Of a stretch of DNA of 64,000 nucleotides, positions 19,401 to 47,500 are shown piece by piece. The DNA comes from Euglena gracilis (taxonomy: Eukaryota). Position 1 is the first letter of the stretch, and each line of letters starts with the position of its first letter. The stretch spans positions 7,513,425-7,577,424 of the forward strand of contig CP154954.1 in the NCBI GenBank assembly GCA_039621445.1. The letters run 5' to 3'. The position numbers were made by a program, and so were the translations under genes. The notes under the pieces are model-generated. The model did no database searches. It was not told where the DNA came from and was given only the letters and a program-made list of their open reading frames with translations.

Positions 19401-22400
19401 GGCATCACACTTTCCATTTAAAAGCAGGGGATCAACTCAAAAAAAAAACGTCATCTCCCCCATGCAGTTGTCTCATAATCCTGCGGCTTCACCCAAAAAC
19501 AAACAATTCTCTTTAAATAATGGAGCCACCTTGGTTGGATATGGGAAGGCAATGCTTGAAATGGCAAGGGGCGTATTTAGTTTCTTCTCGCTGCACTGTG
19601 GCGGGTCTTCCTGGGTGCCAGCTTCGGAAACTCCTCCACGAGGGCTTTGCCAATCTCTGTCTGCCAGTACAGGAACGCGACGTGGATCGGGCTGGCCCCC
19701 ACTGCGTCAGCCGGCATGCGGTTCTGGCAAGAACGTCCCAGCCCAGTTGCCCTAAATTCCACAAGAGGAGTTCCCATTTGCACTGTTTTGACAGGGAAGC
19801 CAATACAGAAACATCATGAAATCCGCAGTCCTAAAAACGGCGATATTCCTGGCATCCACAGATATAACGCCGGCCACACCAACAGTCTACCGCCAGTCAA
19901 CACCACCAGACGGGAGACACAGATATCTGCACCTGCCTTTCTCCCGCCAATATTCTTTGAAAAAAAAATACGCCACACAATGCATAAAACACTCGGCCAG
20001 CCACAACGTTCCAAAGAAAAGCGACCCAAACAGGCACCGGACCCCTCCCCACCAGCCAGCAGCACCTGGACGGGCTGGGTCAGCACGGCGGGGTCCTCGG
20101 CCACCAACTGGCGCACCCGGTCCCGCAGCCCCTCCTTGACCGCCCAGAAGATGCCCTCCCAGGCAGACGGCTGCCGCAGGAGAGGCCTGTGGGGAAGGTT
20201 TCTCCGCATTGCAATTCTGATCACAGGTCTCCCGGAGGGGGCGAGCACTTCTCCGGGCCCAAATCCCAAAAACCATCCACCCACTGTGTTTTGTGAAAGC
20301 CCGCCAATGCATGACCCCCCGGTGGGTCTGTGGTGGGGTAAGGTGGGGTGAGGCCCTGAAGGTGACAACCCAGATCAAGATGGCAGATGGTGTGGACGGG
20401 GACGATCATTGGACATGGGAGTTCGCTAATCTTGTAAACCCCCCCCAAATACAACCCCCCCCCAAATACAAAACCACCCCAAATATAACCCCCCCCCCCC
20501 TGAGGACCCTGAAATCCCGCCCGAATGTAAACCCCCCCCTCCGGCGCAAAGCGCCGGAAGGAAATTTTTTCGACAAAATCTCTCCCGAAATTGTGATTTT
20601 TTGCAGATTTGGGAACAATTTTTACCAAAAACATGTGAAAATTGATCCTTCGCCCGAAAAATGAAGTTTTTGGACCCCCAAGGGTGGGCGTATTTGTGAT
20701 TTTGGACCGAAAAAGTGACTACTGGAGCCTGCCGGGAAGCTGATTTTTCCGGCCGAATATAACCCCCCCCCAAATATAAACCCCCCCTCGGGGTCGTCAA
20801 ATTTCCGCCCAAACATAAAACCGGGGGGGGGGGTTATATTTGGGGGGGGGTTATGACAGGTATATGGTAACTGTGTAAATGGCAAAATTTGGGTTCTGTT
20901 CATTGGGCATTTTTTCCATTGGGCATGGAGAGGGGCACAAGCCTCGCCAATTCCAAATCGTTTCTCATCATACTCGCCCCCCCCCCTTGGGCAATTGTCG
21001 CGTGACAAATTGGGCAGCACGGAGGGGTGTGACAATTTCCCAGGGTGACAAATTGGCCGGCACAGAGGGGGGTGACAATTGCCCGGGGGCGTCAATTGCC
21101 CGGGGGGCGTCAATTGCCCACCCATGTAAGCCACATTTAAACCAAATGACCAAGAACACCATCTTAAACACAAGTGAACGCAGGAAAAATGCAGCTATGG
21201 TCGTGATAATGTGCAGAGCGTTTGGTATGCGAAAGTTCTCAGCACGTTGTAGCGAAATAGAAGATCAATCGAGTCATGTCGGCGAAAAGAAAGTTCACAG
21301 TGCAATACTGCAAACGGGGGGGGGGGGTGACAGACTGGGCAGCACGGAAGGGGGTGACAATTTCCCAGGGTGACAAATTGGCCGGCACAGCCAGGAGTGA
21401 CAATTGCCCGGGGGCGTCAATTGCTCGGGGGCGTCAATTGCCCGGGGGGGCACGGGTACCTACCCCTCCTGGGAAACTGTCTCTAGACAAGTCAGCAGGC
21501 ATAGAGGTAGGAGGCAGGTCCCATAAAGACAGGTCATTGGGTACGGAGACAGGAGCAAGCACCTATAGTCAAGCCCAAAAATTTCCCCATTTTAGGCCAT
21601 TTTAGGCCATTTTAGGCTATTTTAGGCCATTTAAGGCCATTTTAGGCCATTTTAAGGTATAGGTGGGGGTTCTGAAAATCATAATTTTGCGTCATTTCTG
21701 TCCCGAAAACTGCATAATAACGTGTGCGAACCTTAATTCATAACCGAATCTTAATTCATGCCCCATAGAGGAATTCTGAACAGTGGCAGTGAAAAATTTT
21801 CAGGAAAAAAACGTTGGACAAATGTTAAAAGTGTTCATTTGTCTGACCAAAAAAAGTGCCTAGTTTTTAGTATTTTGTGAAATCTATACCATTTTGCGGG
21901 ATTTCGCTTTCTTTTTTGTTTCTTTTTTTCATTTTGCGGGATTCTGACTTTTCTGGGGGAATAATTCAACTTCATTGTCTGCACATGGCTTATATTTTTC
22001 CCATCTGGTCCAAAATCTCTGTTTCCCAAAGTTTTAGGTTGTGTGTTGTGTGTGCAGCAATTTTGAGGGGTTTAACTCGAGAAGGTGGGGGAATTGAGGG
22101 TAATGAGTGGAGACTTTTTTTTGTCGGGTATTTCACAGGCCACTATGACGCGATGATGGGAGAGCAAGTTTGCAGAAGTGTCAAACTTTCAGCACAAAAA
22201 AAGCCAAAATTTTTGAAAAAAAAATTGGGCCAAGATACACAAATTAAGGATCCAAGAAGAAGAAAACCCTCTGAACACGTTCATAAATAAGAGAGAATCT
22301 CATTCATAATTGTTTGTAGTTGTTTAGGTCATTTGATCATTCGGTGTGATTATTTGTGGTTTTGGAAAATCCCCAAAATTGTGCCGGTTCGTGATTTGAA

Positions 22401-44574: not shown

Positions 44575-47500
44575 TCACGGGGTGGTCAGCATCGAGAACT
44601 GCGGCACGGCGCTGAGGCGGCGCTGCGCGGACGGCCGGCGGAACTTCCACGACTCGGAGCACGAAGTGGTGGTGAGGCAGAACTCGAGGTGCTTCGTCAC
44701 GGAGTCCGCCTGGCGGTGGCACGCTGCTGGGCGGGCCGGGCAGGCGGAAGGCAACCCTGAATCAGGGTTCGATATAAGGACAGGTGGGGGGGGGTCCGGA
44801 CACCCCCTGCGGGCCAGGAGGGGGGGGGGTGGGGGGGACACCCCCCACCTAAACCATGTACGCCCTCCTTATATCAAACCCTGCCCTGAATCCCACGGCC
44901 CGTGTCGAATATCTCACCCCCCACTCCACGCCCCCTGAGTGGGTATCCCTCAGGTCAGGTATTGTCATCCTCGGTTCCTAACTTGGTCTGTTTTCTTGGA
45001 CCGGAAAGATCTTACAGCAGGTGATGTGTCACGTTGCATGCATCACACTGGTCACATGTGACAAGTAACCACGTTCCCCACCAGACCCGCTTCCCGTTTG
45101 TGTGTGTGTGTGCGTGCGTGCGTGCGTGTAGCTGTGTGGTGATGTTTTTATATCAACCCCGTGGGAACTTACCAATCAAAAATACCTAAAAACCTGGGTG
45201 GGTGGTCTGAAACACCGAATTTGGGCGGTGACGCTGCTTTCCGTGCACTACTTGCTCTGTGAGAGAAAAAAAAAATGTGGAATAATATGGTGACAGTATA
45301 TGTATTTTCGAGGGGAATCAATGGTATAGCACCTGTTTCACACATTGCCACAATGGAGATGCACAGCAGCCTGGGTTGAATGGGGTGGCATATTCCTTCC
45401 GGATATCCTGCATCTCATCCATGCTGTGCTCGGACTCGTACGCTGCCCGCTGCAGGGGGGCGGGATCCAATCGTCACTCTGCCGGCCACCGTTGCCACCG
45501 CTGCTGACCTGACGTGGGTGGGCAACAGCAGGGGAAAATCAACCACGACCTTTTTATGCGTCAAACAGTTGCGCAAGCCGAGAGAACAGGAAAGAATGAC
45601 GGCTGGCCCTGAAGGTAGGCGTAGACAGCAGGTGGGGATTAAAAAAACAGATTCCTGCCAGGAGAAAAACTTTGCAAACTTGGATGTGACCATTGACTAA
45701 AATTTATCCATGTCATGTCACGCAGAATTTAAATCAAAAGGTGCTTTAAACAGAGGGCAATCATGGGGAAGGAAATATATAAATGATGACACGTGGGCAC
45801 TGCAGTGAAAAGGGGGGAAACGGACCGGGTGAGGATGAAACAAGTGTCGCACTGAAACAAGGAAGACAGGAGAAACGTGTGGTACTTTGATCTGGCTGGC
45901 ACAGATGAGACGTACAGGAAAGACTGTGGAGGGTCAAGATCAATTCAGGGATTTGGGCTGTTGCCCTACTCCCAGGGGGTGTTTCAACCTCCCAGTCGCC
46001 CTGGCCATGAGGTTGGCCCGCTCCAGGTACCAGCGCTTCTCGGCCTGCTCCTGCACGCAAGCGTACGTGTTGCCCATCATGGCGATGAGCAGGTTGAGCA
46101 GCAGGATGACCACCAGGATGATGTACGGCGGCAGGCCGGGGGCCGACAAGGCACACCACCATTGCCCACCTGACCAATCACCCATCCCACTGACCATGAG
46201 GGAATGGGTCAGGTGGTCTGCACCTCTTCCCCAAAAATAACGGGATACAGTCCAGACAAAAATACAGGAGACAAAAAGTATGGGATACCATGGTTTTTTC
46301 GCGTAATTTTTTCCAGTGTACCTTTCCTACACCCTCTAACCCTCTAACTCTCGGGGGTTATCAAATTTCATATAGCTCCCCCCCCCCACCTATCACCTGA
46401 CAGTTTGGCTGGTAACAGCAACCAAACCCTGAAAGCTTCCAATACTGATAGGTTGGCTGGGGACTCTGAAAGGTTCCCGGGTGGGACTTTGAAAAGTTTG
46501 GGGGGGGGGGTTCAAAAGGCTGGGGTTGTGTAATGGTGTCAGTCCTTCAGATTTATTTTGAAAATGAAATTTACAAAAAAAACACCAATGCACCACAAGA
46601 CGTTTGTTTCTGACCATTTTGCAAGAATTTGATCAAATCGAATGTAACCAACCACAACGCAAAAAAATATACCACCATTTTACCCAAAAACTTGAACTTT
46701 CCAATAATTTTGCAAAAAAAAAACAGGGGCCCCAACTACCCCCCCCCCCCGGGAAACTGTCACCTGACAGGCCGGCCCGTACCAGGGAACCTGACGAACC
46801 ACCCATACTGACAGGTCGGCCGGAACCAAGGACCCTGGCAGTTTCCTGGGACCTGACAGTTTCTCGGGTATGACAGTTTCCCGGGGGGAGGGGGGTGTAG
46901 GTAGCAATTTCGCCCCACACCACACCTCTCCCCACTGGCTGGTGCATGGGGGTGCAATTTTTTTCCAAGGGAGATGGCAAGAATGTGCCTGTGCCTGGGG
47001 TGGGGATGCGCCATCCCAGAATCCCCCCCCAAAAAACCCTGCCTCCCCCTTCCCCGTTGTTTGAATTTCATTTTAGGATGGATGTTTCCCCCCTGAAAAG
47101 TGGTCCTGAAATTAGTCGTCCTGTAATGAAACTGGGGGGGGGGCGTTTTTTTTGACTACAAGTAACCAGAGTGATCCCAGCACTTCCGAAAATACAAAAG
47201 AAAAAATTTCGGGAAAAATTACCCCACCCCCCATCCCCCCCACCCCCACCCCCCACCCCCCACCCCCTTCAACTCCCACACCCCCTGAAACACCCCGACA
47301 CCCCCCGACGCCCCCTGACGCCCCCTACAGCCCCCATACCCCAGCATCGCCCAACATCCACCCCACTGAGGCTTTTGGGGGATCCAACCTTTTACAATAT
47401 ATATATGTGTGTCCAACGAACCGGAATCTCTGACTTTCGAAGGGAGGATTTTTTGGTCAAAAAAAAAAGCTTCCCCAGACTCATCACACCCTGAAAAGTT

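Follow-up and report, generated by a model that had tools for sequence, protein, structure and literature searches.

The DNA analysed here is a stretch of 64,000 nucleotides from Euglena gracilis (contig CP154954.1 of assembly GCA_039621445.1, forward-strand positions 7,513,425 to 7,577,424; hereafter the window, with coordinates counted from its first letter). It carries two genes for ankyrin/TRP-like ion channels, whose introns largely follow the nonconventional splicing code of euglenids, and at least seven non-autonomous DNA transposons, or transposable elements of the miniature inverted-repeat type (MITEs), of 121-1424 bp and from at least four families. An earlier note, made by a model from the letters alone, proposed that the borders of the introns preserve the 8-bp target-site duplication (TSD) that such elements generate on insertion, three of the eight nucleotides lying inside one end of the intron and five inside the other. 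Below, we describe the genes, the elements and the introns, and then weigh this proposal against its alternatives. The two genes are:

TRP-1, 1308..33803, minus strand: ankyrin/TRP-like ion channel paralogue, placed by an RNA contig and by homology to the protein P0001
TRP-2, 44629..61331, minus strand: tandem paralogue, with 21 exons and 20 introns mapped

An exon-sized open reading frame (ORF) on the minus strand (1329-1667) gave a Pfam Ion_trans match and also retrieved P0001, an ankyrin/TRP-like protein of 1152 aa that is named 'EG_transcript' in EukProt. When P0001 was used as the tblastn query, two tandem minus-strand paralogues were recovered, TRP-1 from about 23883 to 1308 and TRP-2 from about 61331 to 44629, with identities of 40-96% per exon across both genes. 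P0001 is a paralogue or orthologue and the product of neither of them. The 3' exons of TRP-1 (20152-1308) were placed by homology to P0001, and its 5' exons (33803-23793) are backed by an RNA contig of 859 nt, whose minus-strand exons comprise 33803-33686, one reaching 31191, 29854-29786, 29539-29410, one reaching 28350, 27756-27707, 26981-26892 and 23887-23793. For the contig portion at 31243-33685, the helix candidates were too ambiguous for exon placement. A single minus-strand frame is open across all seven placed pieces of this contig, and we assign it to the 5' part of TRP-1 because its last placed exon aligns with P0001 residues 499-522. The genes called A, B and C in the earlier note most likely correspond to the TRP genes.

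The paralogues lie about 40 kb apart; their exon DNA is up to 91% identical, and their homologous introns can no longer be aligned. RNA contigs and reads from public runs were mapped over 21500-41400, and the raw read depth over the gene was about 1. Hundreds of raw RNA reads showed matches of about 20 nt at 24370-24389, 28545-28565, 33836-33853 and 41046-41062 followed by poly-G, a pattern that gives false long-range joints and probably arises as an artefact of sequencing or of low complexity.

The mobile elements, with their terminal inverted repeats (TIRs) and TSDs, are as follows:

MITE A1, 28490..28884, 395 bp: TIR starting CAGGGTTCGATATAAGGA; TSD CGGATGGG at 28482-28489 and 28885-28892
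MITE A2, 44763..44883, 121 bp: short form of family A; TSD CCCTGAAT
MITE B1, 43667..43940, 274 bp: TIR CAGGCTTCTTTTTAAG; TSD TTCAGGGG
MITE B2, 23499..23740, 242 bp: older copy of family B; TSD CCCCTGGG against GCCCTGGG, 7/8
MITE C1, 30108..30355, 248 bp: starts CAGGGTTTATTTTTAAG; TSD CAGCCCTT
Element D1, 21556..22979, 1424 bp, non-autonomous: TIR CAAGCACCTATAG, CAA...TTG ends; TSD GACAGGAG
Element E1, 480..1159, 680 bp: TIR CAGGGCAGAACGGGAA

The earlier note had listed the first six of these as MITEs with TIRs, CAG/CAA...CTG/TTG ends and 8-bp TSDs, and its description was borne out: the TSD is a perfect 8 bp in five of the six and matches at seven of eight positions in B2, and all six have TIRs, with uninterrupted terminal pairing of 5 to 18 bp when G-U pairs are included. 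TIR length is 13-18 bp in four copies, and the elements start with CAGGG, CAGGC or CAAGC; family end sequences in the window include CAGGGTTCGATATAAGGA, CAGGCTTCTTTTTAAG and CAGGGCAGAACGG. E1 was absent from that list, and its flanking G runs allow a TSD of 8 or 9 bp. The two copies of family A (28490 and 44763) are 87-92% identical at their ends and those of family B (43667 and 23499) are 82-85% identical, while C (30108) and D (21556) are singletons. The interior of D1 holds 10-bp tandem repeats, and the ORFs of D1 and E1 gave no Pfam match. Together with its flanks, the 121-bp A2 folds into a single long hairpin that brings its ends together (-71.6 kcal/mol, z = -3.1).

A scan that was blind to TSDs also set three of these elements apart. 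Exact 11-mer inverted repeats formed 186 outermost pairs, whose flanking direct repeats had lengths of 0 (99 pairs), 1 (66), 2 (11), 3 (5), 5 (1), 6 (1), 8 (2) and 9 nt (1); the isolated class at 8-9 nt consists of D1 (21556-22979), B1 (43667-43940) and E1 (480-1159). Flanks differ among copies of the same family (A1 has CGGATGGG and A2 has CCCTGAAT), and in each pair the two flanks duplicate the local sequence perfectly. Such unrelated, locally duplicated flanks on related copies show that the elements entered by staggered-cut DNA integration of the transposase type, which would rule out spread by reverse splicing, in which the old donor flanks would have travelled along with the element. There may also be a target preference: on one strand, positions 3-6 read CAGG in three of the six TSDs (TTCAGGGG at 43659-43666, GACAGGAG at 21548-21555 and CCCAGGGG/C at 23491-23498), and in a fourth (ATTCAGGG at 44755-44762) the CAGG is shifted by one.

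These ends can be compared directly with the code by which nonconventional introns are removed. That code has been established by knock-in experiments as 5'-N3CDG-/-CH'GN5-6|R, with a 5' spacer of strictly 3 nt, a 3' spacer of 5 nt (6 being tolerated), a purine at the start of the following exon and pairing between the CAG and CTG triplets (PMC12501133). An element with CAG...CTG ends and a TSD of bases T1-T8 produces the order T1-5 | T6-8 CAG...CTG T1-5 | T6-8, which matches the code and, upon splicing, restores T1-8 on the condition that T6 is a purine. The corresponding claim of the earlier note, that 3 + 5 = 8 with a purine required at TSD base 6, is therefore right in its arithmetic and agrees with the experimentally tested code (PMC12501133). 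Across the seven elements read on both strands, 8 of 14 orientations fit. The misfits are C1 and D1 in both orientations and A1 and E1 on the minus strand; a pyrimidine at T6 accounts for C1, minus-strand A1 and minus-strand E1, and the CAA end of D1 falls outside CDG.

To describe the introns of the two genes, we used 40 of them, 5 defined by RNA-contig joints and 35 by spliced alignment to P0001, in which the borders for each neighbouring exon pair maximise the BLOSUM62 score while the frame is kept open; for these 35 the lengths are robust, and the borders are inferred and fixed only up to sliding. An intron was scored as 3/5 if a helix opens 3 nt inside its 5' end and closes 5 nt short of its 3' end, the first two positions being paired and 6 or more of the 8 pairs formed. 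Such a helix was present in 27 of the 40 introns (four of these being doubtful), and 5 of the 13 that failed have a CAG start in the 3/6 geometry, so that the earlier note's observation that introns begin 3 nt before a CAG-type triplet and end 5 nt after a CTG-type triplet holds. GT-AG borders never occurred at the top alignment score, and a single case lay 7 points below it. Almost all introns in the two genes are nonconventional. The 3/5 pattern is illustrated by four RNA-supported cases, all on the minus strand, and by one intron specific to TRP-2:

23888..26891, minus strand: RNA-supported nonconventional intron, GGA-TGG...CCA-GCCCC|A
29855..31190, minus strand: RNA-supported nonconventional intron, GGC-CGG...CCC-TGCTC|A, one mismatch preceding a 9-bp helix
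RNA joint, minus strand: GCC-CAA...CTG-CCTCC|G (slid by 4)
RNA joint, minus strand: GAC-TAG...CTG-GGACC|G (slid by 1)
58823..59188, minus strand: TRP-2-specific nonconventional intron of 366 nt, GGC-CAGGATTTG...ATATTCTG-AGTGG|G

The TRP-2-specific intron is an exact fit to the code, its TIR is imperfect and it is unique in the window; TRP-1 is contiguous at the equivalent position (19107-18931). The 8-mers that flank it, ACCGGGGC and AGTGGGAC, agree at 5 of 8 positions, and gain in TRP-2 and loss from TRP-1 are indistinguishable from the window. The TRP-1 exon 1553-1308 has an intron, with the border ...CTCATGCC|CAGGCGG. As an alternative measure of geometry, a free-shift score that takes the best helix for each spacer sum was tried and discarded, as sums of 8, 10 and 12 were inseparable, the same helix simply being read further in.

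If the introns began as insertions with an 8-bp TSD, the two copies of that duplication might still resemble each other. We therefore compared, for the 27 introns with 3/5 geometry, the 8 nt that precede the first paired base with the 8 nt that follow the last one, a comparison that the earlier note had framed as the last 5 exon and first 3 intron nucleotides against the last 5 intron and first 3 exon nucleotides. Identity in this register was 86/216 (0.398), whereas 20,000 permutations that exchanged partners between introns and kept position-specific composition gave a mean of 66.7 (0.309; P = 0.00075). Other registers from 3 to 13 nt gave identities of 0.23-0.35, and the ten positions on either side of the eight gave 0.31 and 0.26. 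The excess persisted when the four doubtful introns were dropped (77/184, P = 0.00085) and when the RNA-defined introns were combined with those of TRP-2 alone (P = 0.014) or TRP-1 alone (P = 0.013). The length over which a junction slides exactly, a measure independent of register, averaged 1.075 compared with 0.72 in 64 displaced controls, 2 of which reached the observed value. The signal of duplication in the resident introns is thus real but small: the excess that was predicted does occur in the 8-nt register, at a level of only 0.40.

These observations fit a reading in which the elements, their TSDs and the intron code share an origin, to which we assign a probability of about 0.6. On this reading, elements entered by staggered-cut integration of the transposase type with duplication of 8 bp. 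Where TSD base 6 is a purine, an insertion in an exon would, under the tested code, be removed exactly, by cuts that fall between bases 5 and 6 in both copies of the TSD (PMC12501133). The resident introns would most likely be old, decayed insertions of such elements, and both the 3/5 asymmetry and the pyrimidine|purine step (Y|R) at the two junctions would be footprints of the 8-bp duplication, for which the comparison above gives partial support. The arithmetic behind it is non-trivial and links the published code, an eight-nucleotide repeat published for a young intron (described below) and the free-standing elements of this window.

Several observations weigh against it. The duplication signal is weak, at 0.40 and not near 1, and comes from 27 introns, many of which form paralogous pairs and 23 of which have borders taken from homology. 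Since homologous intron interiors of the paralogues no longer align, the identity of the spacers could reflect constraint by splicing and not ancestry. The CAGG motif of three of the six MITE TSDs was not seen in the flanks of the gene introns. Among the introns themselves, the RNA-supported intron 29540-29785 is exceptional in having CAG...CTG at 2/2 or 3/1, and the 998-nt intron 28412-29409, deduced from the coordinates of the contig record, is 3/7. One repeat family, about 385 bp long, whose C-run/G-run ends are inverted (TACCCCCCCCCTATGTCC...), has neither an 8-bp TSD nor CAG ends. Finally, none of the seven element copies in the 64 kb forms a whole intron, a search with joined flanks in the window's paralogues found no empty site, and a scan of 15 ORFs in the window found no transposase domain.

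The main rival to a shared origin is chance resemblance, in which ordinary MITEs have accumulated within introns and in intergenic DNA and the introns are of unrelated origin, their 3/5 geometry being set by a machinery that measures from the helix. The intragenic copies speak for it, all being nested in larger introns and none being an intron itself, as do the weakness of the duplication signal and the conservation of spacers between paralogues whose intron interiors have diverged beyond alignment, which suggests constraint. CAG-type ends and 8-bp TSDs are, in addition, common among DNA transposons. Yet coincidence calls for three chance matches at once, of TSD length, of terminal triplets and of the terminal helix, and it leaves aside that the 8-nt register stands out from the others and that a recently gained intron is described with eight-nucleotide repeats (PMC4770533). 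We consider it unlikely on balance.

That recently gained intron is a nonconventional intron in gapC (intron 4), found in a single E. agilis strain (ACOI 323), with direct repeats of eight nucleotides at its junctions, which its authors ascribe to double-strand-break repair (PMC4770533). Eight nucleotides is also the outcome that the model of the earlier note predicts for a young intron. Break repair, or another route that needs no transposase, could in principle have produced the introns here; the 8-nt repeats would then stem from the mending of staggered breaks, and MITEs would resemble introns because spliceable insertions survive. This explanation has in its favour the authors' own interpretation of the repeats (PMC4770533) and the failure of the 15-ORF scan to yield a transposase. 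It leaves the paired CAG/CTG ends and the inverted repeats unexplained, however, and the free-standing elements in the window show that some machinery in this genome surrounds CAG...CTG ends with exact duplications of 8 bp; we regard this route as improbable.

A shared origin through duplication of 8 bp leaves a choice as to which transposase moved the elements. The ends look hAT-like: hAT elements typically have CAG/TAG ends, their short TIRs begin with (C/T)A(G/A) and their target consensus is nTnnnnAn. The window elements share the 8-bp TSD and the TIR start, and resemble hAT MITEs in their short, CAG-starting TIRs and in having the form of non-autonomous deletion derivatives. They differ from hAT MITEs in that no hAT transposase was found among the window ORFs scanned and in that the target consensus is missing, none of six TSDs having both T2 and A7 and three having one of the two. 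The hAT label of the earlier note draws on two traits, TSD length and CAG ends, and is putative; the TSDs and the CAG/CAA ends agree with it, and the target consensus does not.

The same mechanism could instead have been driven by Merlin (IS1595-like) or by another transposase that makes 8-bp TSDs. In the text of PMC8101967, E. gracilis is credited with two Merlin families that have intact DDE motifs and 8-bp TSDs, the superfamily producing TSDs of 8 or 9 bp and having TIRs that end in 5'-GG. Within the parts of the literature that were accessible, Merlin was the sole superfamily with 8-bp TSDs reported in E. gracilis, and no report of hAT elements in Euglena was found. A TSD of 8-9 bp would also suit the tolerance of the 3' spacer for 5-6 nt. 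The window elements share with the Merlin elements of PMC8101967 the 8-bp TSDs, the near-perfect TIRs and the genus, but differ from them at the termini, which are CAG or CAA here and GG in Merlin. Such ends are typical of hAT in their CAG/TAG form. A source of the Merlin type, or another one outside hAT, seems to us somewhat unlikely, though a serious candidate.

The earlier note went further and suggested that these MITE families are active generators of introns and would be found as whole introns. In the window this was not borne out. Four copies (A1, C1, B2 and D1) sit within larger introns, and the other three are at or past the mapped 3' ends of the genes, A2 within the last mapped intron of TRP-2 and B1 and E1 outside the mapped exons. 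A1 is inside the 998-nt intron at about 28412-29409 of the minus-strand gene, and C1 is inside the RNA-supported intron 29855-31190 of 1336 nt. Both B2 and D1 lie within one TRP-1 intron of 3635 nt (23793-20159), which has ends of its own (GCC-CAGGCCGCTGCC ... GGCAGCCGTCTG-CCTGG|G), and A2 lies within the last mapped TRP-2 intron (662 nt, paired ends at 45373 and 44720), 43 nt from its paired 3' end; B1 is downstream of the last mapped TRP-2 exon. None of the RNA joints listed, from which 145 others are missing, is bordered by a MITE, and the contigs skip the larger introns that hold A1 and C1. As to recent activity, the TSDs are perfect, yet copies are just 82-92% alike, and neither an empty site nor an autonomous element came to light in the window; the search for an autonomous hAT transposase that the earlier note proposed ended with the same 15 ORFs. 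In a metagenome scan with the family A end, the 17 loci returned matched over just 18-22 nt and none held an element, which is the level expected by chance. In this window, the elements are passengers.

A broader version of the proposal holds that transposons with 8-bp TSDs and CAG...CTG ends constitute a genome-wide introner system, that the 3/5 asymmetry, the purine rule and the Y|R steps record a cut placed between TSD bases 5 and 6, that families like those in the window still make introns and that the splicing machinery recognises transposon ends. We place this at slightly under even odds. The introners of Micromonas and other algae offer a comparison, since they are also MITE-like, with TIRs and with TSDs that help to define splice sites (PMC11282704). 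They have TSDs of 3 nt, are spliceosomal and form whole introns in thousands of nearly identical copies (PMC11282704), in contrast to the elements of the window, with their 8-bp TSDs, non-spliceosomal code and lack of whole-intron copies. Among hAT elements, maize Ds has reportedly created an intron de novo; removal of Ds uses spliceosomal sites and not a cut measured from the TSD.

The general idea that nonconventional introns derive from MITEs is already in print and dates from 2013-14: it was proposed in PMC3935182, according to which euglenids had at that time yielded no identified transposable elements, and was repeated in PMC6221363, PMC11170887, PMC12621601 and PMC12501133. The earlier note was thus correct that a transposon origin had been put forward in general terms. 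A review labels CAG/CTG as TIRs and the junction repeats as TSDs, in the sections available giving neither a length nor a superfamily (PMC11282704). In E. agilis, 71.8% of introns are nonconventional and junction direct repeats occur in 84.4% of introns (PMC12501133). The features described for euglenid nonconventional introns, namely CAG/CTG that pair at +4..+6 and -8..-6, a helix joining the ends, Y|R at the two junctions and direct repeats there (PMC3935182, PMC4770533, PMC11282704, PMC12501133), fit the TRP gene introns. The available portions of these papers name no source element, TSD length or superfamily, whereas the window holds free-standing elements with exact 8-bp TSDs, none of which is an intron. 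No paper tying the nonconventional introns to hAT or to TSDs of 8 bp was found in the literature covered, which consisted mostly of open journals without their supplements.

The origin and the removal of euglenid nonconventional introns have been open questions since the 1990s. If 3 + 5 does record a target duplication of 8 bp, the code's asymmetry would be simply explained and the class of source transposon would be narrowed to a few superfamilies. The hypothesis would be testable in the existing EgGSL2 knock-in assay (PMC12501133), and the system would be the first of the introner type to rely on a non-spliceosomal code.

The window as a whole is GC-balanced eukaryotic DNA that is rich in short repeats, and further repeat families and low-complexity tracts accompany the elements and genes described above. 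Two of these families are:

24311-24694, 36518-36897 and 52755-53161: C-run/G-run repeat family, copies 94-95% alike
11818-12630 and 37454-38230: repeat family with ends GGGTCCCCCCATGT...AACCCTAGTTGGGCGACTCTT

The C-run/G-run family is possibly flanked by TA, has copies in introns of both genes and shows very high word depth in RNA contigs. For the family at 11818-12630 and 37454-38230, all copies share one set of flanks (..CTCGCTCG), and its apparent TSD therefore belongs to a larger unit. The GGGTCCCCCCATG family was considered as an 8-bp-TSD element and rejected on the same ground, flanks that are identical at every copy marking it as part of a larger repeat. Inside the GGGTCCCCCCATGT...AACCCTAGTTGGGCGACTCTT family, long inverted repeats enclose 107 nt (37432-37538) that an RNA contig leaves out.

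Within a 6.7-kb TRP-1 intron (17043-10306) lies a tract of about 3.5 kb (13192-16900) of extremely low-complexity, purine-rich sequence, in which AT skew rises to 0.91 and GC content falls to 0.33, followed by a TA/TG microsatellite. An interstitial telomere-like array, (GGGTTA) x 6.3 in perfect copies, is located at 34548-34585. Between TRP-1 and TRP-2, a 163-bp unit is repeated in tandem at 41880-42759 (5.4 copies, 97% identity), and after it comes a C-rich tract, about 139 nt long, at 42777-42915.

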